Positions 6,169 through 29,758 of a stretch of 64,000 nucleotides of DNA are shown here, piece by piece. The stretch's first letter is position 1; every line of letters starts with the position of its first letter. Origin of the DNA: Candidatus Aldehydirespirator sp. (lineage in GTDB: Bacteria; Actinomycetota; Acidimicrobiia; Acidimicrobiales; Aldehydirespiratoraceae); assembly GCA_965248735.1 (NCBI GenBank), contig OZ252146.1, positions 4,050,925-4,114,924 on the forward strand. The letters run 5' to 3'. The translations under genes were made by a program, and so were the position numbers. Below the pieces are notes generated by a model. That model saw only the letters and a list, made by a program, of their open reading frames with translations, was not told where the DNA came from and ran no database searches.

Positions 6169-8076
6169 ATGACCGGCTTCGCTCTGACCTGCCTCTGGGC
6201 GTGTGCGGCCGGGGCGGTAGCGACGGCGGCCGGTGCGAGATCGCGGCGCTTCGCTCGGGCCGCTTCGGCGGTGATGGCCGCGGGTGCAGCCATCCCCACG
6301 GTCATACTGGCCAGAGCGCTTTGGTCCCTCGACTTGTCGCTCACATACGTGGCCGACCATGCCCGGGCCGGCACATCGGGGCTCTACCGGCTGTCGGGCC
6401 TCTGGGGCGGGGCCAGCGGATCCCTGTTGCTGTTCACGAGCATGGTCGCCGCGGCTGTGGCCGCTCTGGTCTGGACCCAGCCGCGCCCCGCGGCCCGGAG
6501 TGCCGGGCGGTGGGGATCCCTGAGCGTCGCGGTGCTGGCCGGCGCGGTTCTGGCCACAGCCAACCCGTTCCGCCATCTGGCCATCCCGGCGATCGAGGGC
6601 GCCGGGCTGCAGCCGATCCTCGAGCACCCGGCGATGCTGTACCACCCGCCCTTGCTGTATCTGGGCCAAGTGTCCACGATCGTGCCGTTCCTCGTGGCGG
6701 TGGCCTCCCCGCTCAACCCCGGGACACGGCGGGCGCTGCGCGGCTGGCTCGGCGTCAGCCTGGCCCTGTTGACGGTCGGGCTCGCGACCGGATCCAACTG
6801 GGCGTATGTCGAGCTGGGCTGGGGCGGGTTCTGGGGCTGGGATCCGGTCGAGAACGGGATCCTCGTCGCCTGGCTGCTGGTTCTGGCCGCGATGCACGCG
6901 GTCGGCCAACCCCGACACGGACGCACCGTTCGGATGCTGTGCACACTGCCGTGGGCGACAGTCCTGGTGGCTGCCGCGGTCACCCGCGGCGGTGTCGGCG
7001 GCTCAGTCCATGCCTTCGCGGACGACGCGCGGGTCTCGTGGATCCTGCTGGGCCTGATCGTGGCCACCGCGGTCGTGGCGGTGCTCGCCGCCGCAGGCTT
7101 CCGGCACCAGCGGCCTCGGCCGGCGCAAGCCCGAGTTGGCGAGGCAGGCCGGGGCGCTCTCTGGCGGCAGCCTCCGCTGGTGCTGGGGCGCATCGCGGCT
7201 GGCGTACTGGCCGCAGCTGCGGCCGTGCTCGTCCTGGCCGGAGTGCTCTATCCGATACCCGCACCGGGCGAGCCGCTCGTGACGGGCCCGTACTACGCCA
7301 CGCTTCTCGGCCCCCTGGCGATCGTGGCACTGGGCGCCGCGGCCACCGTCGTGGGCGGCCGGGCGACTGTCTGGTCGGCCGCGGGCGCGCTCGCCGGCGT
7401 GATCGCGGCTGCGGCCGCGGGGGCGCGGTCCCCCTTCGCCCTGTGCGTCGCAGCCGGTGTCGGCGCCATCGTCGTGAATCTCCTCGACGGACTGCGGTCG
7501 CGAACGCGCGGGCGCTGGCCGATGCGGGTGGGCCACCTCGGATTCGCGGTCCTGCTGATCGGCGTCGCGGGCTCAACCCAGGCAGACCGGGTGACGGTCG
7601 GACTGGACGTCGGCGAGGAGATCGAGGTTGGGGGACGGTCCTTCCGCCATGTCGGCGTTGAAGTAACCGGGGGACCGACCCCGGGATCGAACGCGGTGGT
7701 CGCCACGGTGGAGGTACGCGACGGTGACGACAGGGTGGCCACGCTCCACCCTTCGCTGGTGGCGTTCCCGGATCGCAGCGTGCTGCTCGCGGAGACCGCC
7801 CTGCACTCCCGTCCCGCCCGCGACATCCAGGTGGTGCTGCGGACGGCGGCCGACTCCGGGGCCGCGCTCTACCTCGTGTCGGTCGCTCCGCTCGTCATGT
7901 GGGTGTGGTGGGGGTCGGTGCTCCTGGCCGGCGCCGGGCTAATGGTCGCATTCCACGCCGCCATGAGCCGTGCGCGGCAGGCAGGCACGGCCTCCAGACC
8001 CCGGGATGTGGCCGCATACGGAGCGCTTGGCGACGCAGATGGAGGCGGGATCGACACCGCCGCTGAGCCCGATTGA
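6169..8076 (+). CDS. CcmF/NrfE-type cytochrome c heme lyase-like membrane protein
   Basis: Trp-rich heme-handling WWD motif [20 protein letters not shown] followed by LAAMH. Upstream periplasmic His motif YHPPLLYLG. Many TM segments; 635 aa. Confidence 0.75.
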
Positions 8077-14648: not shown

Positions 14649-16229
14649 TCAGAATCCGGCGATTGCGTCGAAGTATCGCTGCACGAGGGCACGCGCCGCG
14701 GGCGGAACCTGGCCCCGGTCCAGGCTCTTGACGGCCTCGTCGAGGTATGAGCCCAGCACCTCGCCGACCGGCACCCGCGCACCCGAGGTGCCGGTGATCC
14801 CCTGGCCCTGCCCGACGATCTCCGACTGGCCCGAGGTGGAGGCGCCTTCCACCCGCTGGATGTCGCTGGCACCGCCGGGAAGCCAGATGGTGGGGGCGCT
14901 GCGGTCGCCCGTCTCGGTGCTGTCGCCGCGGCCGCTCGCGGTGCCCTGGCCTCCCTGCCCCTGCCCGGTCCCGGAGCTCGCGCCTGTTACCGACCCCGAC
15001 GGCGACCCACTGCCCTGGCCCTGCCCTTGCCCCTGGCCCTGGCCCTGCCCTTGACCTTGACCCTGGCCCTGACCCTCTCCTTGGCCCTGACCCTGGCCCT
15101 GCCCTTGCCCCTGGCCCTGGCCGGGTTCCTGCGCCTGCTCGCCTGCGTCGCTCAGACGAGCCGCGGCGTCGCCCAGCAGGTCGACTGTGTTGGCCCTGGC
15201 CGTCTGGTCCAGCAGCGACGCCTCGCCGCTCCGCTGGGCCGATGCCGCCACGCCCAACGCCGCCGCAGCCCGGTCGAGGTCGCCCGATGCCAGCGCGGCG
15301 CCCGCGGATCCGAGTGCTCCGGCCGCGGCGGGGTTGCCTGCGGTCTGCGTGGCCGCTAGCGCCTCGAGGCGCCTGGCTATCGCAGCCCGATCCTGCTCCG
15401 ACAAGTCGCCGAGCGCCTCAGCGAGTGCCTCCAACTGGTTGGCCGCTCCGCCGAGACCCTCGGCGAGCGGCCGAGCTTCGAGGGACCTGTTCAACCCCTG
15501 CACGGCCGACTTCTCAGCCAGGAAATAGTCGGTGATGCCCGCTTCGAGCTCACTGCGAGCCTGTTCCAGCGCAGCCAGGCTCTCGTCCAGGGTGGCCTCC
15601 TCGAGCCGCTCCGCCAGACGTTCGAGCTGCTCGGCCAGCGCAGTCTGATCCGGTGACGCCAGCCCGTCGGCCGCAAGCGCCTCGGCCCGGGCCCGCAAGG
15701 CGTCGGCCGCCGCGGCCACCGCAGCCCGCTCCATGTCGGGGGCGCGGGCCGTCTCCGCGGCGGAGTCGGCGAGCAGCGCCAGGCCCAGCGCGGCCAGCGC
15801 CGCCGCGGCCGCAGCCCCCAGCGGGCGCCAGCCAACCCTCAGCGGAACGGCTCGGCGGACATCGCCGCGCCGGGCCGCGGCGTCGGCTCGGACCCGGATC
15901 TCGTCGCCGAACACGCCGACGAGGCCGGCGAACTGCAGCGATGTGGACAGCGCATCGTTGGTGTCCAACGAGCGGTCGGCCGAGCGGGCCGCCGCCTCGA
16001 TGCTCACCGGAAGGATGATGCTCCCCACGACCAACGCGATCAGAGCGCCCGCGCCGACGATCAAGGCCGCAGGTTCCAGCCATGCCCACGCGACGACTCG
16101 CGCCGACAGCACCAGCAGCAGTGCAATCCCGGCGGTGATCGGGGCCCAGCGCTCGAAGGCAGCCAGTGCCCACGCCGCTCTGATGCGTCGCCGCACCGCA
16201 ACGAGAAGGTCGGTCACCTGGTCCGACAC
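14649..16229 (-). CDS. Membrane protein with Ala-rich coiled-coil region and (GQ)n low-complexity tract
   Basis: GTG start. N-terminal TM helices (APITAGIALLLVLSARVV, ALIVGAGALIALVVGSIILPV), a long Ala/Leu/Glu-rich region, then about 19 GQ dipeptides. First gene of the MoxR operon. Confidence 0.6.
   Translation of the reverse strand: MSDQVTDLLVAVRRRIRAAWALAAFERWAPITAGIALLLVLSARVVAWAWLEPAALIVGAGALIALVVGSIILPVSIEAAARSADRSLDTNDALSTSLQFAGLVGVFGDEIRVRADAAARRGDVRRAVPLRVGWRPLGAAAAAALAALGLALLADSAAETARAPDMERAAVAAAADALRARAEALAADGLASPDQTALAEQLERLAERLEEATLDESLAALEQARSELEAGITDYFLAEKSAVQGLNRSLEARPLAEGLGGAANQLEALAEALGDLSEQDRAAIARRLEALAATQTAGNPAAAGALGSAGAALASGDLDRAAAALGVAASAQRSGEASLLDQTARANTVDLLGDAAARLSDAGEQAQEPGQGQGQGQGQGQGQGEGQGQGQGQGQGQGQGQGQGQGSGSPSGSVTGASSGTGQGQGGQGTASGRGDSTETGDRSAPTIWLPGGASDIQRVEGASTSGQSEIVGQGQGITGTSGARVPVGEVLGSYLDEAVKSLDRGQVPPAARALVQRYFDAIAGF
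15009..15123 (-). repeat. Hexanucleotide (CCCTGR/GGYCAG) tandem repeat encoding (GQ)n
   Basis: Direct reading: ~19 imperfect 6-nt units, in frame within the 14649-16229 CDS. Confidence 0.85.
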
Positions 16230-18336: not shown

Positions 18337-20606
18337 CCGGCGACTCCAGCCTGAGCACCCACGCTCTGCTCCGATCCCGCAGAGTCGGATCGGGACGGGT
18401 CGCTGGAGGACTCGTCATCGGCCGCGTAGGACAGCGTCAGCGGCTCGTCGTCGCTGCGGCGGCTGCGCACGGCCAGCTCTTGAAGCGAGGGGAACCCTCG
18501 TTCGAAATCGAACAGCACCTTCGCGTACACGCGGCCGCGATCGGTGCTCCCGGCCGGCAGCTCGAGCACGGCCCTCGTGTTCTGCTCCAGATCGACCTGG
18601 CGCCACTGGGTCCCGGTCCAGAGCTCGAGTCGGTCCTGGCTCCGAGGAACGGCGAGCACAAGATCGTCCGTGCTTGCACCCTCCGGCAGCACGAAGCGGA
18701 ACATGGCACCGCCTCCCCAGCCGTCGATCCGGAAATCCGAACCGAGGTCTTGGAGGCCGCGCACGCTCTCTCGCGTCACGGCCGCCCCGGCGAGAGAGTC
18801 GCCGCGGGACTCGATCGCTCCCCGGGCCACGAACAGCGTCCGACCGGCCACGACCTCGGCATCGAGCGGGGACGCGAGCTCATCGGACCATGCCGCCACC
18901 ACGACCTGGCCCGGCTTGCGTGCATTCAGCGACCAGCGCGCGCTCAGCTCGTTCCACAGTCCCAGATTCACCGGCCCAGGGTCGTGGTCCCGGCCGGAGT
19001 CGCCGAAGAACTCCGGTCCCAGTGCGTCGCGCCAGACCCGGAACTCCGCCGGCTCTTCGTCGAATGGGTTGATCGCCTCACCGACGTCATCGAACTCGAC
19101 GGTCGCGCCGGCGGGCACGGTCCCGATGTTCACGCCGGCCTGATCGGCAAAAACGACAACCTCGTGCAGATCCACACCCAGGTTGTTCACCACCGCGCCC
19201 TCGACCCGGCCGTCACCCGCCGACCAAGCCGTCACTTCCAACGCGTCGTCGAAAGCCGCGTGGGCGCCGCTGCCGCCGAGCACGGTGAACGCACCGGCGT
19301 CAAGCTTGATCGAGGCGGTGGACCCTGCGGCGTGGTCGACGATGTCGACCACGCTGGGCCGACCCTCGGTCACCACGGGGATGGTCGACCACCCCGGCAA
19401 CAGCGAGACCGAGTCGCGGCCGCCGCCCCCCGAGTGCAGCAAGGAGTACGTGGTGGCCACCGTCCCGCGCGGCGCCACCTCGACGATGGTGCCGTGGGCC
19501 GTCTTGGCGCTGTTCCGCAGGCTCGACGCGAGCACCCAGATGCCGACCGCGAACGCCACAGCAGTAGCAGGCACCAGGATCCAGGTGAGCCCGGGACGGC
19601 GCAGCGTCTTCGACGCCAGCCACACGCCTATGCCGGCGACCGCGACGTAGGCGCCGATGATGGCGGCCAGCCAGCGGGCACCGGGGAGGCTGAGGCCGGC
19701 GTCGCGCCCGAGCGACCAGCTCACGGGCTCGCCGCCCCAGAACGGATGAAGCTCGGCCAAGGCCTCGTCCTCTTGGCGTGATCTGGTGGGCGCCGGTTCG
19801 AACACCGCATCCCAGTGACCGGATGCCGCCGCGCCGTCCGTCACCATGATCTCGCCCTGGCCGGCCAGGCGGGGCTGGGCGCCGTCCGGCTGCCATGCCG
19901 CCGGAACGCCCGGCATCTCCGCACCGACGGGCTCATCGACAAGCAGGCGGCCGCCCCGGTTCACCCAGCCCAGGAGGGCATCCAAGCCCGCAGTGTCGAG
20001 ACCGCGAAGGTCGGCCGCCGTCACTACGACCATGTCGAGGGGCTCCAATGCGGCCCAACCCGCGGCCAGGATCGCGGGATCGACCGGGAAGAGCCTCGCT
20101 TCACCGGCATCGAACAGCAGCGGCGCCCTCTCGGGGATGCCACGATCGGCGAGGGCCGGAAAGACGCCTACGAGGTCGGCGTTGCGCTGCACGACCGGTT
20201 GCACCGTCGCCGAGGCGACGATCTCGCCGTCGGCCACCAACTGGACAGTGGTGGTCCCGACACGCCATGGGTTCCACGCCCAGACAACCGTGAACTCGCG
20301 GGTGGTGCCGCCTGGAATCTCGACCTGTCTGGCGATCGCGAGACCCGAGCCTCGGCTGCTGATACGCAACTCGCCGACGAACAAGACGTCGGTGGTGACC
20401 TCGATGTGCAGCGGGAAGGGCCTGCCGACATGGCCGAGTCCGCCGTAGCCGGCGTCCACCGCCACCTCGGTCTCGGCTGCTGCGATGCCGGGCAACCCCC
20501 CGACTGCGGCCACCACCAGCGAACAGAACACCGCGAGCCGGAGGCTCAACCGCCGAAATGGCACCACCGTCACGCTAGCTCTGGATTCGTCCCCCAATTG
20601 ACGCAA
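18333..20606 (-). CDS. Large exported/membrane-anchored protein of unknown function (first gene of the ABC-2 operon)
   Basis: Signal-like RLSLRLAVFCSLVVAAVGGLPGIAAAE and central TM pair (WLAAIIGAYVAVAGIGVWL, ILVPATAVAFAVGIWVLA). 4-nt overlap with the ATPase gene. The true start is probably one of the GTGs near 20570 rather than the TTG at 20606. Confidence 0.55.
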   Translation of the reverse strand: MRQLGDESRASVTVVPFRRLSLRLAVFCSLVVAAVGGLPGIAAAETEVAVDAGYGGLGHVGRPFPLHIEVTTDVLFVGELRISSRGSGLAIARQVEIPGGTTREFTVVWAWNPWRVGTTTVQLVADGEIVASATVQPVVQRNADLVGVFPALADRGIPERAPLLFDAGEARLFPVDPAILAAGWAALEPLDMVVVTAADLRGLDTAGLDALLGWVNRGGRLLVDEPVGAEMPGVPAAWQPDGAQPRLAGQGEIMVTDGAAASGHWDAVFEPAPTRSRQEDEALAELHPFWGGEPVSWSLGRDAGLSLPGARWLAAIIGAYVAVAGIGVWLASKTLRRPGLTWILVPATAVAFAVGIWVLASSLRNSAKTAHGTIVEVAPRGTVATTYSLLHSGGGGRDSVSLLPGWSTIPVVTEGRPSVVDIVDHAAGSTASIKLDAGAFTVLGGSGAHAAFDDALEVTAWSAGDGRVEGAVVNNLGVDLHEVVVFADQAGVNIGTVPAGATVEFDDVGEAINPFDEEPAEFRVWRDALGPEFFGDSGRDHDPGPVNLGLWNELSARWSLNARKPGQVVVAAWSDELASPLDAEVVAGRTLFVARGAIESRGDSLAGAAVTRESVRGLQDLGSDFRIDGWGGGAMFRFVLPEGASTDDLVLAVPRSQDRLELWTGTQWRQVDLEQNTRAVLELPAGSTDRGRVYAKVLFDFERGFPSLQELAVRSRRSDDEPLTLSYAADDESSSDPSRSDSAGSEQSVGAQAGVAG

Positions 20607-20750
20607 TTAGCAATGAATGTGATTGTGTCAGAGCGCGAGACCGTGCTACAGTCCGTTCCGTATCGTGGGACTGGTCCACAGTGCGGAACCGGCGTGTGGC
20701 TGACTTCCGTGGCACGGACCCCCGACCGCACAGAGGGAGGGCTGCGCCGG

Positions 20751-21503
20751 ATGACTGACATCCCTGCTGCCGGACCGGACACCGCCGACGACGACATTGG
20801 CCTGTCAGACCAAGCGGCCGATGACGACATCGACCTGTCGAGTTTGGACGATGACGAACTCACCGCGCAGATGCACGACGACCTCTACGACGGGCTGGCC
20901 GACGAGATCCACGAGGGCACCAACATCCTCCTGGCGCGGGGCTGGTCGCCCGACAAGGTGCTCAACGGCGCCCTCGTGGAAGGGATGCGCATCGTGGGCA
21001 TCGACTTCCGCGACGGCATCCTCTTCGTGCCCGAGGTCCTGCTGGCTGCCAACGCCATGAAGGCGGGCATGGCCATACTGCGGCCCCTGCTAGCCGAGAC
21101 GGGCGTCGAGCCCATCGGCAGCGTGGTGATCGGAACGGTCAAGGGCGACATCCACGACATCGGCAAGAACCTGGTGGCCATGATGCTCGAAGGAGCCGGC
21201 TTCGAGGTGTTCGACCTCGGCATCAACACCAACGCCGAGGAGTTCCTGGCCGCCCTCGACGAGCACAAGCCGGACATCCTGGGCATGTCGGCCCTGCTCA
21301 CCACCACAATGCCCTACATGAAGGTGGTGATCGACACCCTGATCGAGAAGGGCATACGGGACAACTTCATCATCCTTGTCGGCGGTGCGCCCCTCAACGA
21401 GGAATTCGGCGCGGCCGTCGGCGCCGACGCCTACTGCCGCGATGCCGCCATCGCCTCCGAGACGGCCAAGACCCTCGTCACGGCCCGTCGCGCCGCTAGG
21501 TGA
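20751..21503 (+). CDS. Methyltransferase cognate corrinoid (B12-binding) protein
   Basis: B12-binding DxHxxG motif GDIHDIGKN, then ILGMSALLTTT and ILVGGAP. N-terminal helical cap domain. GAGGGAGG Shine-Dalgarno 11 nt upstream of the ATG. Confidence 0.9.
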   Translation: MTDIPAAGPDTADDDIGLSDQAADDDIDLSSLDDDELTAQMHDDLYDGLADEIHEGTNILLARGWSPDKVLNGALVEGMRIVGIDFRDGILFVPEVLLAANAMKAGMAILRPLLAETGVEPIGSVVIGTVKGDIHDIGKNLVAMMLEGAGFEVFDLGINTNAEEFLAALDEHKPDILGMSALLTTTMPYMKVVIDTLIEKGIRDNFIILVGGAPLNEEFGAAVGADAYCRDAAIASETAKTLVTARRAAR

Positions 21504-21640
21504 GGACCCGACGCAGCCTCCACCGACGCTAATCGGATGAACCCGACGCCACCGCCCCCACCGACGCTAATCGGATGAACCCGACGCCACCGCCCCCACC
21601 GACGCTAATCGGATGAACCCGACGCCACCGCCTCCACGGG
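21503..21640 (+). repeat. 38-nt tandem repeat (about 3.5 copies) spanning the start of the DUF1638 gene
   Basis: GGATGA recurs at 21535, 21573 and 21611 (period 38). The unit is CCGACGCTAATCGGATGAACCCGACGCCACCGCCCCCA. Each unit carries an ATG. Confidence 0.9.
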
Positions 21641-22245
21641 TGCTGATAGTCGGCTGCGGCGCGCTGGTACGCGAGCTGCAAGAGGTGGCGGCCCGCAACG
21701 GCAGCGGGCTTCTTGAGGTGGAGTGCCTGCCCGCCATCATGCACAACCGACCCGAGAAGATCCCCGACGCGGTACGCCGGAGGGTGCAGACGGCCAAGGC
21801 CAGCGGCGCCTTCCGCACGATCCTCGTGGGCTACATGGACTGCGGCACCGGCGGCCTCCTCGACCGGGTGTGCTCCGAAGAAGGCGTCGCGCGGCTTCCC
21901 GGCGCCCACTGCTACGAGCTCTACGCCGGCGCGGACGCCTTCGCGGGACTGCAGGAGGCCGAACCGGGCACCTTCTACCTCACCGACTATCTGGTGCGGC
22001 ACTTTGACCGCCTAATCATGAAGGGCCTGGGCATCTCAGAGCACCCGGAGCTGCTCGAGGTCTACTTCGGCAACTACACCCGGGTTGTCCACCTGGCCCA
22101 GACCGACGACGATCGTCTGGCCCGCTCCGCCGAGCAGGCCGCCGCCCGCCTGGGCCTCCGATGCGAGCGGATTCTCGTCGGCATCACCGGACTCGAGCGC
22201 CGGATCGTGGAGTTGGCCGGCGCCGCCGGTGCTGAACCGGCATGA
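21613..22245 (+). CDS. DUF1638 domain protein
   Basis: RVLIVGCGALVRELQEV, YMDCGTGGLLDRVC, PGAHCYELYAG and FYLTDYLVRHFDRL are typical of DUF1638, a family that accompanies corrinoid methyltransferase genes. An alternative GTG start lies at 21640. Confidence 0.75.
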   Translation: MNPTPPPPRVLIVGCGALVRELQEVAARNGSGLLEVECLPAIMHNRPEKIPDAVRRRVQTAKASGAFRTILVGYMDCGTGGLLDRVCSEEGVARLPGAHCYELYAGADAFAGLQEAEPGTFYLTDYLVRHFDRLIMKGLGISEHPELLEVYFGNYTRVVHLAQTDDDRLARSAEQAAARLGLRCERILVGITGLERRIVELAGAAGAEPA

Positions 22246-22649
22246 GCGCCTCAACAGGGCGCAGCGGGCCTAGGCGCCGCCGCGACGACGGGAGCCTCGT
22301 GCTGATCAGCTGGCGCGACATCCCCGCCCAGGTCAACGGCGGTTCACGCACCGAGCGGGTGCAGCGCATCCTCCCCCGCCGCTTCCAGAGGGCCATCGAC
22401 CGGGCCGCCATGGTGGCCGGCAAAACCCAGGCCTCGCAGTACGTGGGCGAGTGGCGCCGGACCTTGATCCCCGGAGACGCCGACGATCCCGAGAGCGCGG
22501 CCATCGCGGCCGCGGCCGAGCTGGAGGAGGCCTTCCCCCGGGAGCGCCTCGACGAGTTCGTCAAGACGGGCGGGTGGGATCCCGAGCGCAACAGCCAGGG
22601 CCAGCCGGCGCCCGAGAATCGCAGCCAGTTCGGAGGAGACCCCCAGTGA
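22242..22649 (+). CDS. Small basic protein (family often annotated 'virulence factor' in corrinoid methyltransferase clusters), tentative
   Basis: ATGA overlap with the DUF1638 stop and GTGA overlap with the next gene. LISWRDIPAQVNG..RFQRAIDRAAM. The family assignment is from memory only. Confidence 0.5.
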   Translation: MSASTGRSGPRRRRDDGSLVLISWRDIPAQVNGGSRTERVQRILPRRFQRAIDRAAMVAGKTQASQYVGEWRRTLIPGDADDPESAAIAAAAELEEAFPRERLDEFVKTGGWDPERNSQGQPAPENRSQFGGDPQ

Positions 22650-23536
22650 CCGACACAGTCCTCAGCTCGGCCACCAAGGAGGTGGTCATCGGCTTCGGCC
22701 GCCCGTTCGTGATGATCGGCGAGCGCATAAACCCGACGGGCCGGCGGCTGCTGGCCGAGGAGATGCGCAACGGCGACTTCGGCCGGGTCGAGGCCGACGC
22801 TCTCGCCCAGACCGCGGCCGGAGCTCACATGCTCGACGTCAACGCAGGGATCCCCCTCGCCGACGAGCCGGCCCTGCTGGCCCACGCCATCAAGCTGGTG
22901 CAGAGAGTGACCGACGTGCCCCTGTCCATCGACTCCTCCATCGTCGAGGCCATCGAGGCCGGCATCGCGGCGTACGAGGGCAAGCCCCTCATCAACTCCG
23001 TAACCGGGGAGGAGGAGGTGCTCGAGCGGGTGCTGCCCCTGGTGGCCCGGCACGGCGCCGCCGTCGTCGCGATCTCCAACGACGAGACCGGCATTAGCGA
23101 GGACCCCGACGTGCGCTTCGAGGTGGCCCGCAAGATCGTGAACCGGGCCAGCGATTACGGCATCGCCCCGGCCGACGTGGTGGTGGACCCGCTGGTGATG
23201 CCGATCGGGGCCATGGGCACAGCCGGACGCCAGGTGTTCCAGCTGGTGCGGCGCCTGCGCGACGAGTTGGGGGTCAACACCACCTGCGGCGCCAGCAACG
23301 TGAGCTTCGGCCTGCCGGCGCGCCACATGATCACTGGGACCTTCCTGTCGATGGCCATCGGCGCCGGCTTGACGTCGGCGATCATGAATCCCATGCACCC
23401 GGAAGTCAAGAACGCCGTGCTGGCCGCGGATGTGCTGGCCGGGCACGATCGGGACTGTGCCGCATGGATCAAGGAACACCGGGATCCCGACACGGTCGGC
23501 TTGAGACGACGGGGCGGGCGTCGCCGCGGCGTCTGA
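22646..23536 (+). CDS. Methyltetrahydrofolate:corrinoid methyltransferase (pterin-binding domain, MtgA/AcsE/MetH-like)
   Basis: GTG start with GGAGGAG Shine-Dalgarno. IGERINPTGRRLLAEEM, MLDVNAG, LSIDSS, LINSVTGEE and CGASNVSFGLP are hallmark pterin-binding barrel motifs. Confidence 0.85.
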   Translation: MTDTVLSSATKEVVIGFGRPFVMIGERINPTGRRLLAEEMRNGDFGRVEADALAQTAAGAHMLDVNAGIPLADEPALLAHAIKLVQRVTDVPLSIDSSIVEAIEAGIAAYEGKPLINSVTGEEEVLERVLPLVARHGAAVVAISNDETGISEDPDVRFEVARKIVNRASDYGIAPADVVVDPLVMPIGAMGTAGRQVFQLVRRLRDELGVNTTCGASNVSFGLPARHMITGTFLSMAIGAGLTSAIMNPMHPEVKNAVLAADVLAGHDRDCAAWIKEHRDPDTVGLRRRGGRRRGV

Positions 23537-23540
23537 GCGC

Positions 23541-25517
23541 ATGCACGAAATGCACAGCGTGGTGTTCAACCCCTCGGGGATACGCGCCTCGGTGGCTGCC
23601 GGAGCCACCGTGCTGGACGCGGCCCGAGCCGGCGGGGTGGATCTCGACTCGGTTTGCGGCGGCCGCGGCCTGTGCGGGCGCTGCCAGGTGTCCCCCACCG
23701 CGGCCGACGTCCTGTCTGAGCCCGGCCCCACCGAGTTGCGCTACCGGGGCCGGCGCCCCCTGTCCGAGGAATGCCGCCTCGGCTGCCAGGCGGTGGTACT
23801 CGGCAATGCCGTCATCGACGTGCCCGCCGCCAGCCAGGTCCATCGGCCCGTGGTCCGCAAGTCGATCGACCTCGCAGAGGTGGTCATCGACCCGGTGGTC
23901 ACGCTGCACTATGTGGAGGTGCCCAAGATTGTGCTCGGATTCGAGGCAGCCGAGGTGGACCTGGTGGCCGAGGCCCTGTCCAACGATTGGGGCCTGGCCG
24001 ATGTCGACTTCGGTGTGCCGGTGCTGGCTCGCCTGCATTCGGCCATTGCCGCCGGGGAGGGGTCGGTCACGGTGGTTGTTCACGGTGGCCGCACCGTGCT
24101 CGACGTGCGGCCCGGATACTCCGACGGAGCCTGGGGGGTGGCCGTGGATGTGGGCTCCACCACCATCGCCGGCTATCTGCTCGAGCTCTCGTCGGGTGAG
24201 GTTGCCGCGGCCTCCGGTCGCATGAACCCGCAGATCCGCTTCGGCGAGGATCTCATGAGCCGGGTGTCGTATGTGATGATGAATCCCGGCGGCGAGGCGG
24301 AGCTCACCGCGGCTGTGCGCGGCGCTATCGACGAGTTGGTGGGCGAGCTGTGCGAGCACGCCGGAGTGGACCGCGGCCAGGTGCATGACCTGGTCGTGGT
24401 GGGCAATCCGATCATGCACCATCTTGTGCTGGGCTTGGATCCCACCCCGCTGGGGGCGGCGCCGTTCACGCTCGCCACGGCCACCGCGGTGCGGGGCGTC
24501 GCCGCTGAGATCGGGATCGGGCTGCCTTTTGCGGCCTTGTACGTCGGTCCCTGCATCGCCGGGCATGTCGGTGCGGACGCGGCCGCGGCCACTCTGGCCG
24601 AGGGCCCTCACCGGGTTGCCACCCCGATGCTGGTGGTCGACGTAGGCACCAACGCCGAGATCGTGCTGGGCGACGGGCATCGGGTGTTCGCCGCTTCAAG
24701 CCCGACCGGTCCAGCCTTCGAGGGCGCCCAGATCAGCTGCGGCCAGCGGGCGACCGCGGGCGCGGTGGAGCGGGTCCGGATCGACCGGGACACCTGGGAG
24801 CCCCGGTTCAAGGTCATCGGCTGCGACATGTGGTCCGATGAGCCGGGATTCTCCGAGGAGCTGGACCGGGCGGGGCTGGAGGTGTCGGGCCTGTGCGGCT
24901 CGGGCATCATCGACGTGATCGCCGAGATGTTCCTGGCCGGCGTCATGGATCGCCATGGCGTGGTCACGTCAGAGACCAGCCGGTCGCCGCGCATCGTGGC
25001 CGACGAGCGCACGTTCAGCTACGTGATTCAGTGGGAGCCGATCCGGCTGTCGATCACCCAGAACGACGTGCGGGCCGTCCAGCTGGCCAAGGCGGCGCTG
25101 CGGGCCGGAATCGATCTGCTTCGCGAGCATGGCGGTGTCGACGAGGTGCCCGACATCCGTCTGGCTGGAGCGTTCGGGGCCCACATCGACCCGGTGCGGG
25201 CCATGGTGCTCGGCCTGGTCCCCGACACGCCTACCGGCGGAGTGCGGGCCGCCGGGAACGCATCGGGCGTGGGAGCGGTGCGGATGCTGCTGTCGGGCGA
25301 GCAGCGCCTCGAGATCGAATGGCTGGTGCGGTCGGTCGTCAAAATCGAGACGGCCACGGAGCCCCGCTTCCAAGAGCTGTTCGTGGCCGCCATGGCGCTC
25401 CCCCACGACACCGACCCCACCCCGCATCTGGCCTCGATGGTCGACCTGCCCCAGGCTCCCGCGGCGAACCACGACCAAGGCAGGCGCCGGCACCGCCGAC
25501 CCCGTCCCGCCGCGTGA
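23541..25517 (+). CDS. Reductive activase of corrinoid enzymes (2Fe-2S ferredoxin domain + ASKHA ATPase domain, RamA/RACE-like)
   Basis: N-terminal plant-type ferredoxin motif CGGRGLCGRCQV. The large C-terminal region carries VDVGSTTIAGYL and VVDVGTNAEIVLG, which are ASKHA phosphate motifs. Confidence 0.85.
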   Translation: MHEMHSVVFNPSGIRASVAAGATVLDAARAGGVDLDSVCGGRGLCGRCQVSPTAADVLSEPGPTELRYRGRRPLSEECRLGCQAVVLGNAVIDVPAASQVHRPVVRKSIDLAEVVIDPVVTLHYVEVPKIVLGFEAAEVDLVAEALSNDWGLADVDFGVPVLARLHSAIAAGEGSVTVVVHGGRTVLDVRPGYSDGAWGVAVDVGSTTIAGYLLELSSGEVAAASGRMNPQIRFGEDLMSRVSYVMMNPGGEAELTAAVRGAIDELVGELCEHAGVDRGQVHDLVVVGNPIMHHLVLGLDPTPLGAAPFTLATATAVRGVAAEIGIGLPFAALYVGPCIAGHVGADAAAATLAEGPHRVATPMLVVDVGTNAEIVLGDGHRVFAASSPTGPAFEGAQISCGQRATAGAVERVRIDRDTWEPRFKVIGCDMWSDEPGFSEELDRAGLEVSGLCGSGIIDVIAEMFLAGVMDRHGVVTSETSRSPRIVADERTFSYVIQWEPIRLSITQNDVRAVQLAKAALRAGIDLLREHGGVDEVPDIRLAGAFGAHIDPVRAMVLGLVPDTPTGGVRAAGNASGVGAVRMLLSGEQRLEIEWLVRSVVKIETATEPRFQELFVAAMALPHDTDPTPHLASMVDLPQAPAANHDQGRRRHRRPRPAA

Positions 25518-25567
25518 ATGTTAGTAGAAACCTGGGATAATCCTAGAAAAGTGCTATCAAATCCGGA

Positions 25568-25625
25568 ATGATGAACGAGGAAGCATGAACGAGGAACCAT
25601 GAACGAGGAACCATGAGCGAGGCAC
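25568..25625 (+). repeat. 14-nt tandem repeat (CATGAACGAGGAAC, 4 units) running into the MttB-family start codon
   Basis: ATGs at 25571, 25585, 25599 and 25613 (period 14). Each unit contains GAGGAA plus ATG. Confidence 0.9.
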
Positions 25626-27145
25626 GAGGGCGCAGAGGCGGAGGACGAGCGGGTCGGCGGGCCGCGAGGGCCGCATCAGTGGAGACGGCGCCGTACCTGG
25701 TCCGCCGGCAGCCGCCGGTGGACATACTCGACGTCGAGGGCTTGGAGCAGATCGAGCGCAACGCCGAGACAATCCTGTCGGAGGTCGGCATCGCCTTCCA
25801 GGACTTCCCCGAAGCCTTGGAGCTCTGGCGCGCCGCGGGCGCGGACATTGACGGGGAGCTGGTGCGGTTCCCGCCCGGCCTGTGCCGCCAGATCGTGCAG
25901 GACGACGCCCCCGCCGTCTACACCCAGCACGCCCGCAACCCGGCCCGCAGCGTCCAGGTGGGCGGCGACGCCACCGTGTTCGCCCCCAACTACGGCTCGC
26001 CGTTCGTCATGGACCTGGACCGGGGCCGCCGCTACGCCACGCTGGAGGACTTCTGCAACGTGGTGAAGCTCGCCTACGTGCTGCCGCAGCTGCACCACAG
26101 CGGGGGCACGGTGTGCGAGCCGGTGGATGTGCCGGTGAACAAGCGCCACCTCGACATGGTGTACACCCACCTGCGCTACAGCGACAAGCCGTTCATGGGC
26201 TCGGTGACCGCCGCCGAGCGGGCCGCCGACTCCGTCGAGATGGCCCGCATCGGCTTCGGCGGCGACCTGGCCGACCGCACCGTGATGACGTCGCTGATCA
26301 ACGCATCCTCCCCGATGCGCTGGGACGCCACCATGCTGGGCGCAGCCACCACATACGCCCGGGCCAACCAGGCCTGCATCATCAGCCCGTTCATCCTGGC
26401 CGGGGCGATGTCGCCGGTGACGGTGGCCGGACTGGCCGCGCAGGCCCTGGCCGAGGCGCTGTCGGGCATGGCCTACCTGCAGCTGGTCCGCCCCGGGGCC
26501 CCAGTTGTGTTCGGCACGTTCGCCTCGTCGATGTCCATGGCCACCGGGGCACCAACCTTCGGCACGCCCGAAGCCGGCCAGGCCATCTACGTGATGGCGT
26601 CGCTGGCCCGCCGGGTGGGGGTGCCATTCCGATCCGGCGGGCAGTTCACGTCCTCGAAGCTGCCCGACGCGCAGGCTGCCTACGAGTCGGCCCACACCCT
26701 GCTGCCCACCATGCAGGCGGGGGTGAACTTCGTGCTGCACGCCGCGGGCTGGCAGGAGGGCGGCCTGGCCCTGGGCTACGAGAAGCTGATCCTGGACGCC
26801 GACCAACTCGGCGCCATGGAGGTCTGGGCCCGGGGGGTGGACACCAGCGACAACGGCCAGGCCATGGAGGCGTTCCGCACCAACGCCCACGGCGACCATT
26901 TTCTGGGCAACCCCCACACGCTGGCCAATTTCGAGAGCGCCTTCTGGCGGTCAGAAATCTCCGACGCGGCCAGTTACGAGCAGTGGACCGAGGAGGGCTC
27001 GCTGTCGGCGGCCCAGCGGGCCAACGCCCGCTGGAAGCAGTTGTTGGCCGACTACGAGCCGCCCCCCGTCGACGACGCGGTGGATGCCGAGCTGCTCGAC
27101 TACATGGCTCGACGCAAGGCCGAGATGCCCGACGAGATCGGCTGA
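25613..27145 (+). CDS. MttB-superfamily methyltransferase (non-pyrrolysine; quaternary amine/betaine-type substrate likely)
   Basis: 510 aa with no in-frame TAG. The N-terminal region DILDVEGLEQIERNAETILSEVGIAFQDFPEALELWRAAGADI is typical of the trimethylamine methyltransferase family. Clustered with the corrinoid protein, pterin methyltransferase and activase. Confidence 0.9.
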   Translation: MSEARGRRGGGRAGRRAARAASVETAPYLVRRQPPVDILDVEGLEQIERNAETILSEVGIAFQDFPEALELWRAAGADIDGELVRFPPGLCRQIVQDDAPAVYTQHARNPARSVQVGGDATVFAPNYGSPFVMDLDRGRRYATLEDFCNVVKLAYVLPQLHHSGGTVCEPVDVPVNKRHLDMVYTHLRYSDKPFMGSVTAAERAADSVEMARIGFGGDLADRTVMTSLINASSPMRWDATMLGAATTYARANQACIISPFILAGAMSPVTVAGLAAQALAEALSGMAYLQLVRPGAPVVFGTFASSMSMATGAPTFGTPEAGQAIYVMASLARRVGVPFRSGGQFTSSKLPDAQAAYESAHTLLPTMQAGVNFVLHAAGWQEGGLALGYEKLILDADQLGAMEVWARGVDTSDNGQAMEAFRTNAHGDHFLGNPHTLANFESAFWRSEISDAASYEQWTEEGSLSAAQRANARWKQLLADYEPPPVDDAVDAELLDYMARRKAEMPDEIG

Positions 27146-27196
27146 CCGGAAGGGCCGGTCACCCGGTTACGGGCCAACCAGCAAGCTACGCGCCGG

Positions 27197-27562
27197 TCAG
27201 CTGGCTGCAGGCAAGTCGGCCAGATGGGGCCGGTCGGGAAGGCGAAGGCCTATGAGCTTGCCGGCCGCGTGCAGTTCGAAATGCCACACGTCGACGTCGT
27301 CGGGACTGGTCTCGCGCAGCGATGTCACCGCGTGCCAGATGGCCAGGCGGGCCGCATGCGCGGTCGCCTCCGGGGACTCGGCCGCACGCGACACCGCGGC
27401 GTACCCGGCGGAGATTCCTGCATAGACGTCAGCGTGGACCGACACAGACACAGCCGCCCACTCCGCCAAGGCTCTGAGCGCGCGTGGCCTTGACCGGTTG
27501 ATCGGATCCTCGAACACCGCCTCGACCCAAGCGTGCCAAGCTGTCGAACCTCTACCCGCCAT
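27197..27562 (-). CDS. Hypothetical protein
   Basis: 121-aa ORF with genome-typical codon bias; no recognisable motif. Confidence 0.3.
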   Translation of the reverse strand: MAGRGSTAWHAWVEAVFEDPINRSRPRALRALAEWAAVSVSVHADVYAGISAGYAAVSRAAESPEATAHAARLAIWHAVTSLRETSPDDVDVWHFELHAAGKLIGLRLPDRPHLADLPAAS

Positions 27563-28689: not shown

Positions 28690-29758
28690 CGGTGGTCCTG
28701 GGTCGGATCGAGAGAGTCGCGCAGGCCATCGCCGATGAAGTTCACGCACAGCACGGTGACGACGATGGCCAGCCCCGGAGCCCATACCAGCCACGGCGCA
28801 GTACTGACGAACCCCTCATTGCCGCCCAGCATGTTGCCCCACGTCGCCGTGCGGGTGGCGCTGACGCCGAGGCCTAGGAAGCTGAGGGGCGACTCGGCCA
28901 GGATGGCGGCTGCCACGCTGAGCGACACCGCCACCATGATCTCGCCAGCCAGGTTCGGCAGCAGATGGCGGACGATGATCCTGCGATTGGGAACCCCCAG
29001 CGCCCTAGCCGCCTCCACGAACTCGCGCTCCTTCAGGGCCAGCACCTTGCCCCGCACGATCCGTGCCGGGACCATCCATGTGATGCCAGCCAGAACCACC
29101 ACGACCTCCCAGACCCCGTCGCCGAGAATCCGCGCCGCGATGACCACCACCATCAGCCCGGGAAGCGCCAGCATGGTGTCAGCAAAGCGCATCAGCGCCG
29201 ACTCGACCCATCGCCCGTAGTAGCCGGACACGAGTCCGACGAAGGTCCCCACCACTCCGCTGATCAACGCCACCGCCCCACCGACCAGCAGCGAGACCCG
29301 GCCTCCGTAGAGGACCCGGCGGTGGCCCCGTGATCGATCAGCGAGCCGCGGCGGACCGCCGACAGCGTGCCGATGGTGAGACCCGCACCCAGCGACAGCA
29401 CCACCGCCGCAGACACCAGCAGCGCCGCAGACACCAGCAGCGCCGCAGACACCAGCAGCAACGTGTTGGCCATGGCCCTCTCCACGAAGGGCCACACGTC
29501 CTGGCCGTTGCGGACCAGCGACGTGCCGAAGTCACCCGTCGCGAGGTTGCCCAGCCACCTCAGGTAGCGCACACCGAAGGAGTCGTTGAGGCCCAGGGAC
29601 TCGGTGTAGGCCCGCCGGGCCTCCGCGCTGATGCGAGGGTTGACCGCAATCTGGGCTGCGGGACTGGAGATCTTGCCCGCGGCCCAGAAGGTGGCCAGCG
29701 AGATGAGCAGCAGAATCGGCGCCATGACGGCCAGACGCCGGACCGCGTAGCGGATCAT
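28686..29758 (-). pseudogene. Remnant of DppB-type and DppC-type permease genes, separated by a deletion and/or frameshift
   Basis: ORF 29264-29758 starts like DppB (MIRYAVRRLAVMAPILLLISLATF ... GDFGTSL) and then degenerates. ORF 28686-29495 is only the C-terminal ~200 aa of a DppC-like permease (ALPGLMVVV, FVEAARALG, SFLGLG). The missing parts imply loss of several hundred bp. Confidence 0.65.
29405..29458 (-). repeat. 18-nt tandem triplication (GCCGCAGACACCAGCAGC x3)
   Basis: Direct reading. Encodes LLVSAA x3 inside the DppB-like fragment. Confidence 0.9.

Follow-up and report, generated by a model that had tools for sequence, protein, structure and literature searches.

A strain-variable minisatellite of stop/start-chained mini-ORFs, derived from its own gene-start junction, in a corrinoid operon of 'Candidatus Aldehydirespirator'

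Mycobacterial MIRU-VNTRs are the closest analogue of the repeat array described here. In the account of them given in PMC12548453, which goes back to Supply et al. (1997), MIRU ORFs are coupled at -4 nt (NTGA) and their insertion has little effect on expression. As far as that account goes, both repeats are tandem and lie between genes of an operon in a high-GC actinobacterium (MIRU units measure ~40-100 bp), both vary in copy number between strains, and in both the unit ORF overlaps the flanking start and stop at -4 in the same orientation. MIRUs are portrayed there as dispersed and apparently mobile, whereas the present 38-nt repeat occupies one locus in 64 kb and forms no dispersed family there; its unit is a self-copy of the gene's own junction, and the likeness rests on layout. 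Termination-reinitiation coupling at NTGA junctions was described by Huber et al. (2019 and 2023), going by the review of their work in the same article. The present locus resembles it in that the ancestral junction and all unit junctions are ATGA or GTGA and no Shine-Dalgarno (SD) sequence precedes the downstream starts, and differs in that coupling would have to pass along a serial chain of three to four very short relay ORFs versus one junction. Runs of prolines cause ribosome stalling and require EF-P; among known regulators are proline-rich leader ORFs such as mgtP of the Salmonella mgtCBRU operon, likewise a short ORF with consecutive Pro codons upstream of an operon gene. Unlike mgtP-type leaders, the 38-nt array has no conserved peptide, attenuator or RBS-sequestering structure, is intergenic instead of lying in a 5' leader, and is absent from most relatives. 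Engineered bicistronic designs and natural uORFs (compare PMC13255528) use a non-functional 'delivery' short ORF that ends on the target start and delivers ribosomes to it, which the present units resemble; those designs contain an internal strong SD, whereas the 38-nt units have none. A literature search for self-duplicated start junctions forming coupled mini-ORF arrays found no description, which is not proof of absence.

The window, meaning the whole stretch of 64,000 nt that was analysed, has a G+C content of 68% and comes from a sponge-associated member of the Acidimicrobiia, 'Candidatus Aldehydirespirator'. The operon concerned lies on the forward strand and is an MtgBCD-type cobalamin-dependent quaternary-amine demethylation module with two B12-reactivation proteins. 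The upstream partner of the coupled junction is the gene for an MtgC-like corrinoid (B12-binding) protein of 250 aa (20751-21503; Pfam B12-binding and B12-binding_2), which has a strong SD (GGGAGGG, -12.8 kcal/mol with the anti-SD) and is called at the same 250 aa on identical contigs. Downstream are the DUF1638 gene (21613-22245, 210 aa, PF07796), whose start has no SD (-1.1 kcal/mol), a Virulence_fact gene (22242-22649, PF13769) that is ATGA-coupled to the DUF1638 stop, an MtgA/D-like pterin-binding methyltransferase gene (22646-23536, 296 aa) that is GTGA-coupled to the Virulence_fact gene, a gene for a RACo/RamA-like corrinoid reductive activase (23541-25517) that starts 4 nt past the methyltransferase stop, and a gene for an MTTB-family (non-pyrrolysine) methyltransferase (25613-27145; PF06253, E = 8.6e-218, profile from residue 8). 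The junction spacings of the block are -4, -4, -4 and +4 nt. DUF1638 co-occurs and shares a fitness phenotype with a RamA-like protein, a link to B12 reductive reactivation (PMC5764234; PMC12478193), and the corrinoid protein and DUF1638, as a B12-reactivation factor, plausibly form a functional partnership. A minus-strand ORF at 21529-22002 was treated as a high-GC artefact. A sub-threshold Rfam match to PYLIS_3 lies inside the MTTB gene.

The corrinoid gene ends with TGA at 21501-21503, and the original prediction placed about 3.5 tandem 38-nt units immediately past this stop. TRF reported there a period-38 array (21516-21637, 3.2 copies, 97% matches, score 230). Read in a 38-nt register, the copies start at 21502, 21540, 21578 and 21616: those at 21540-21577 and 21578-21615 are adjacent and identical to each other, the one at 21502 is diverged with a 3-nt offset within its 5' half, and the one at 21616 forms the DUF1638 gene's 5' end, departing from the unit after CCTCCAC. 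The true start of the array is 21500, with the degenerate copy spanning 21500-21536, and the whole 37/38-nt minisatellite, as delimited by TRF and the strain alleles, consists of a relic, two perfect units and the gene's 5' copy (21500-21653, forward strand). Its units, of at least 10 nt, are arranged head to tail, as in a minisatellite. The 38-mer was found at two sites in the 64-kb window, also when up to 3 mismatches were allowed, and its expectation from 100 dinucleotide-preserving shuffles is none.

A chain of forward-strand reading frames runs through the array. GTG 21500 overlaps the corrinoid stop (GTGA, -4) and opens a 10-codon ORF (VRTRRSLHRR, 21500-21532), whose TAA stop at 21530-21532 sits 4 nt upstream of ATG 21537 (+4). 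ATG 21537 and ATG 21575 (-4) open two relay mini-ORFs (21537-21578 and 21575-21616; each ATG, 12 codons and TGA) that both translate to MNPTPPPPPTLIG, and their stops at 21576-21578 and 21614-21616 each overlap the next ATG as ATGA. The last of these, ATG 21613 (-4), opens the 210-aa DUF1638 protein with the N-terminus MNPTPPPPRVLIVGCG. The identical 13-codon ORFs, their chaining into DUF1638 and the third ATG as the gene start had all been proposed in the original prediction and were borne out on translation, as was its point that, 38 not being a multiple of 3, the chaining works through the stop/start overlap. The chaining depends on that ATGA overlap together with a period of 2 mod 3: a unit that begins with ATGA and has this period makes a 13-codon ORF that closes on the next start, and every step is a same-strand stop/start overlap or a spacing of a few nt, as in coupled gene pairs. 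The possibility that the gene really starts at GTG 21640, leaving the repeat wholly non-coding, was rejected: most relatives have GTC or GTT at that codon, and they conserve the ATGA start and an 8-residue tail.

About 65 related loci from sponge-associated Acidimicrobiia ('Ca. Aldehydirespirator') were compared. About 25 MAGs (80-88% protein identity) have no spacer, their corrinoid stop sharing a direct ATGA overlap (...GGATGAC...) with the start of DUF1638, and the diverged copy of the window, from the GTGA at 21500, aligns colinearly with this single-copy ancestral junction (alignment A1). The locus L066 keeps an intact old duplication, consisting of GTGA, a 13-codon ORF (VTDPQEPGLVLIG) and ATGA, and L005, L054, L065 and L062 carry the same duplication minus 1 nt. 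Given the colinear relic and the intact duplication in L066, the unit duplicates the NTGA junction along with the first ~12 DUF1638 codons, and 21500-21532 is a relic of the original DUF1638 start junction. The unit forming mini-ORF 1 is a hybrid, with a gene-like 5' half and a 3' half like the relic. By this comparison, the ancestor had a corrinoid stop overlapping the DUF1638 start (...GG-ATGA-...), in which an old duplication of ~38-41 nt made a second ATGA; the upstream copy then decayed (ATG to GTG, 1 nt lost), and within the window's species hybrid units of 38 nt (once 35 nt) arose repeatedly by unequal exchange or slippage of the decayed copy with the gene copy.

The copy number of the unit differs between close relatives. 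Across seven alleles from genomes that are 96-99.9% identical, the extra units number 0, 2, 2, 2, 2, 3 and 3. Four assemblies, including the window, share 98.9-99.9% DNA identity over 12.6 kb and 100% identical DUF1638. There are 2 full units in the window and in L003 and 3 in L001, whose extra one reads CCT versus CCC in the window units, and L002 also has 3, the third being a different hybrid (...CCTCCACGGGTGCTAATCGGATG) with the peptide MNPTPPPPRVLIG before its stop. Nearly all indels among these assemblies fall in two repeat arrays, the second being a VNTR with the 14-nt unit ATGAACGAGGAA(G/C)C (TRF, 25571-25622, forward strand) that precedes the MTTB gene, and the four near-identical genomes have four distinct allele combinations at the two VNTRs. 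L062 (97.8% DNA identity) carries just the diverged copy and the gene, with no unit added. In the two loci at 96%, the units are one of 35 nt and one of 38 nt (L063) and two of 38 nt (L064), with unit peptides MNPTQPPLALIG and MNPTPPPPLALIG before the stop. The 3' halves of the units in these two loci agree with the diverged copy of their own locus (ctggcg) instead of that of the window (ccgacg), so their expansion was either independent or homogenised by concerted evolution. Hybrid breakpoints fall at three places, within CC[T/C]CCAC, at the joint of GGGTGCT and AATCGG, and at the joint of ACCCGACGC and AGCC, which shows that the diverged copy and the gene copy have recurrently undergone unequal exchange or slippage. 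JGI metagenome contigs, scanned for the exact pattern of the unit junction, gave 0 matches and no further alleles, and exact look-ups of the corrinoid and Virulence_fact proteins returned no contigs beyond those compared. The alleles and the relatives' junctions together show the array to be a strain-variable minisatellite (VNTR), generated locally from the coupled junction, and it is classified as a VNTR with translationally coupled unit ORFs.

The relay into DUF1638 was followed in all loci by taking the nearest start codons from the corrinoid stop onwards. It is unbroken (spacings -4 to +9) in all Acidimicrobiia loci except L038, L043 and L048, and the chaining described in the original prediction is supported to this extent: an unbroken relay into DUF1638 is the conserved feature of the junction. 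At least seven independent multi-step architectures produce it, comprising 5-codon ORFs in L020/L022 and separately in L042/L044/L045/L047, a 3-codon ORF in L060, ORFs of 10 and 25 codons in L024, one of 10 codons in L035, a series of four short ORFs in L040, and the 38-nt repeat family of the window. The triplet 4 nt upstream of the first ATG differs between lineages but is always a stop: the window clade has TAA, L005/L054 have TAG and L065 has TGA. In the alphaproteobacterial loci L056, L057 and L059 the two genes are set apart by ordinary spacers of >120 nt, and the relay is absent. A full relay arises in only 0.7-26% of spacer shuffles per locus, with the NTGA at the corrinoid stop kept and the related loci being only roughly independent. 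These observations are a weak but consistent sign of selection on the corrinoid-DUF1638 relay; the relay inside the array is kept by construction, the units being copies, and the array is thus not independent evidence of selection. A different dispersed element of ~92 nt occupies the same junction in three MAGs (L006, L024 and L035).

The ATGs at 21537, 21575 and 21613 all lack an SD (-1.1 kcal/mol, where random 20-mers average -4.0), so coupling is the plausible route to them. Ribosomes finishing the corrinoid protein would pass along the relay to DUF1638 by termination-reinitiation and continue into the ATGA- and GTGA-coupled genes downstream; as far as geometry goes, this would take them through four successive junctions. 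With the coupling kept, an array would be tolerated, and only arrays of the 2 mod 3 frame class would survive. The array is thus a locally born VNTR that is probably tolerated since termination-reinitiation coupling survives at a period of 2 mod 3. Reinitiation in series would hardly reach 100% efficiency, so DUF1638 output is likely to fall to some extent when units are added, and the most probable consequence would be that translation of DUF1638 is modestly attenuated against that of the corrinoid protein, to a degree set by copy number. A dedicated sensor is unlikely.

The compared genomes commonly carry tandem duplications, both at gene starts and within coding regions. The 14-nt VNTR upstream of MTTB (25571-25616 up to the start overlap) likewise forms mini-ORFs (MNEEA, MNEEP and MNEEP, each followed by a stop) that are ATGA-chained into the MTTB start; strains have 3 or 4 of its units, which carry GAGGA 4-5 nt before the next ATG, whereas the 38-nt units have no SD. 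RACo starts in relatives bear arrays too, a relay array of 35 nt in L023 and an in-frame one of 36 nt in L035, and the DUF1638 homologue P0015 has an in-frame 27-nt duplication of its tail region (MTPAPQRRE followed by MTPAPQRRR). Duplications of 0 mod 3 appear to persist as in-frame extensions, as in P0015 and at the L035 RACo start, and no start-spanning duplication with a period of 1 mod 3 was seen in this small sample. Independent expansions at the same corrinoid/DUF1638 junction occur in L040, L045 and P0015.

These expansions, and the four allele combinations among four near-identical genomes, are also what would be expected if copy number were selected, as an adaptive translational rheostat or contingency locus tuning, for different hosts or conditions, how much corrinoid protein there is relative to its reactivation partner and to the coupled downstream genes. 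Since the whole block is coupled at the spacings given above, a change in copy number would propagate downstream. Against this, such widespread tandem duplication fits a mutational tendency combined with a purifying filter equally well, and copy number has no on/off effect on the gene frame: every allele keeps the DUF1638 ATG and frame intact, so that no allele behaves as the off state of a phase-variable switch. As a phase-variable contingency locus of the simple-sequence-repeat kind, the array could conceivably have only a quantitative effect. With seven alleles, neutral copy-number drift and selection cannot be separated, and we consider an adaptive rheostat unlikely. A more elaborate form, which we also regard as rather unlikely, would treat self-copied NTGA junctions as evolvable 'relay-ORF' arrays in which the number of polyproline and MNEEP units sets the stoichiometry of corrinoid, reactivation and methyltransferase proteins in an EF-P- or proline-sensitive way. 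If that were true, the recurrent births of arrays at the same junctions would represent adaptation and not mutational noise, and if copy number tunes expression, it would offer a simple, heritable and reversible adjustment of subunit ratios in an operon.

The original prediction read the array as what looks like a duplicated stalling leader, whose PPPPP stalls could gate translation of the downstream methyltransferase genes. In the fuller form weighed here the leader would be an evolved one, the stalls would gate DUF1638 as well, and duplication would strengthen the gate. The stall motif is present, each mini-ORF having five consecutive Pro codons (PPPPP at codons 5-9), such stalling depends on EF-P and mgtP-type proline-rich leader ORFs do regulate, and a ribosome stalled at codons 6-9 would be within about 15 nt of the next ATG. 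Ribosome stalling on PPPPP is chemically plausible as a prediction. The comparison of orthologous regions, which the original prediction had itself named as a test, goes against a gate: the repeat is missing from most relatives, about 25 of which have the direct ATGA only, the 97.8% DNA-identical relative has 0 units, and near-identical strains have 2 or 3. The expectation that the PPPPP run is preserved also failed, as both the peptide and the length of the proline run vary by lineage (PPPPPTLIG, PPPPLALIG, QPPLALIG and PPPPRVLIG). The tail ahead of the conserved RVLVIGCG keeps its length of 8 residues among 120 homologues but is hypervariable in sequence and generally Pro-rich, with MTAPPHPS as the commonest form; the tails usually begin with MT because ATGA fixes A at the start of codon 2. 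PPPP occurs among these homologues only in the window's immediate clade, and the fifth Pro of the mini-ORFs originates at the hybrid joint. Judged from these alignments, the polyproline run is a passenger from an unconstrained Pro-rich N-terminal tail and not a conserved motif. DUF1638 of the relative with 0 units has PPPP at its own codons 5-8, so the units bring no new kind of EF-P dependence.

Folding of 21480-21670 showed no excess stability over shuffles (MFE z = 0.06), and riboswitch, attenuator and RBS-sequestering ideas were dropped accordingly; an Rfam search in E-value mode of 19500-27500 gave no match at the repeat. With neither an RNA structure nor an Rfam family, nothing is visible that would turn a stall into a regulatory output. 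Since the leader ORF and its stall motif are not conserved among relatives, and no RNA structure or device that would change downstream expression was found, the array falls outside the class of regulatory leader peptides. A stalling leader that senses EF-P or proline is accordingly very improbable, and stalling is left only as a possible side effect. Of the original reading, the stop/start chaining, conserved across relatives, stands, and the proline-stalling switch finds no support in the comparison.

It is similarly improbable that the array is a neutral, inert spacer in which the mini-ORFs are untranslated and DUF1638 initiates by itself. Initiation at starts that lack an SD is common in Actinobacteria, and on this C-rich, unstructured RNA SD-independent initiation could bypass the relay. 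The relay is nevertheless kept unbroken through many independent insertions, the stop before the first ATG is kept whether it is TAA, TAG or TGA, and with three identical ATGs that all lack an SD there is nothing to favour the third. An assembly artefact, or a dispersed mobile repeat (MIRU- or MITE-like) inserted at this place, has next to no credibility, even though tandem repeats are prone to mis-assembly and the ~92-nt element does occupy this junction in three MAGs, since independent assemblies from several samples give distinct and internally consistent alleles with diagnostic substitutions and breakpoints, and a mobile origin of the 38-mer was rejected on its single locus in the window and its demonstrable derivation from the local junction.

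The locally born VNTR provides a clean natural example of a tightly coupled (ATGA) junction absorbing insertions, and the two VNTRs are usable strain markers for an uncultured sponge symbiont. For annotators it carries the caution that polyproline 'leader peptides' can arise as by-products of duplication. The value of the case lies less in polyproline gating than in the comparative support that it lends to a selected coupling of the corrinoid protein and DUF1638, and in the recurrent, frame-filtered duplications that this coupling appears to have accommodated.

The start of the MTTB gene is immediately preceded by a 14-nt tandem repeat (unit ATGAACGAGGAA(G/C)C, window 25571-25622), whose units encode the mini-ORFs MNEEA, MNEEP and MNEEP, each ending in a stop codon, in an ATGA chain that runs into the MTTB ATG at 25613. 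GAGGA lies 4-5 nt 5' of the following ATG in every unit, and the period is 2 mod 3, as is that of the 38-nt unit at the corrinoid-DUF1638 junction. Three copies are present in the window and L001 vs four in L002 and L003, L001-L003 being near-identical strains. A two-copy form (ATGAACGAGGCACC followed by ATGAGCGAGGCACG, with the mini-ORF MNEAP and its stop) is found in most relatives (range L004-L033), and the small ORF upstream of MTTB is thus old and conserved.

The RACo-MTTB spacer (window 25518-25570) is AT-rich beyond what is usual for the genome (…ATGTTAGTAGAAACCTGGGATAATCCTAGAAAAGTGCTATCAAATCCGGAATG…), is kept in the related loci L004, L005, L028 and L054, and may serve MTTB as an internal promoter or an operator. 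Within MTTB, window 26645-26744 matches the Rfam model of the mttB pyrrolysine insertion element (PYLIS_3) at 30.4 bits, below the gathering score of 38, in an ORF without an in-frame TAG; the match probably stems from homology of the coding sequence, the gene being an MttB-family member of the non-pyrrolysine type.

The complement of each 38-nt unit (21540-21615, minus strand) includes GGTGGGGGCGGTGG, with five GG runs separated by single-base spacers. Judged by its sequence, this template-strand motif is a possible two-tetrad G-quadruplex, which might promote replication slippage. An element of ~92 nt (…GAGGCCGAGCGG…GAGGCCGTGGCCCGAGCGGCCCGTGAGCGCAGCGAACAAGAGCGGGA…) is inserted as a single copy precisely at the corrinoid-DUF1638 junction in L006, L024 and L035, and forms 3-copy tandem arrays 5' of the corrinoid gene in L006 (3695-3986) and L030 (3840-4122); what seems to be a reverse-complement copy lies before MTTB in L020. 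The element appears to belong to the dispersed repeats of these genomes, akin to a MIRU or MITE.

Two in-frame tandem repeats also lie within coding sequence of the window, at 15012-15122 and 29394-29459. In the first, a (GCCCTG)n array encodes a long GQ-repeat within a protein of 526 aa; in the second, an 18-nt array of 3.7 copies encodes LLVSAA repeats within an ABC permease-like ORF. Both reading frames are on the minus strand. On the L003 contig the gene call for the GQ-repeat protein is 534 aa long, vs 526 aa for L001 and L002, suggesting another length polymorphism.

In many related MAGs, tandem repeats (periods of 18-90 nt) are found repeatedly at other gene boundaries of the methyltransferase operon, including L018 (5597-5711), L031 (5602-5670), L040 (4639-4996 and 5606-5887), L045 (3758-3972) and L047, L051, L052 and L053 (~6980-7080). 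The RACo start of L023 is duplicated by a 35-nt unit (6898-7007), giving short ORFs that stop 1 nt short of the next ATG, and the RACo N-terminus of L035 carries an in-frame MHDMHGTHGRP repeat from a 36-nt unit (6898-7021). These genomes seem generally prone to duplicating start regions.
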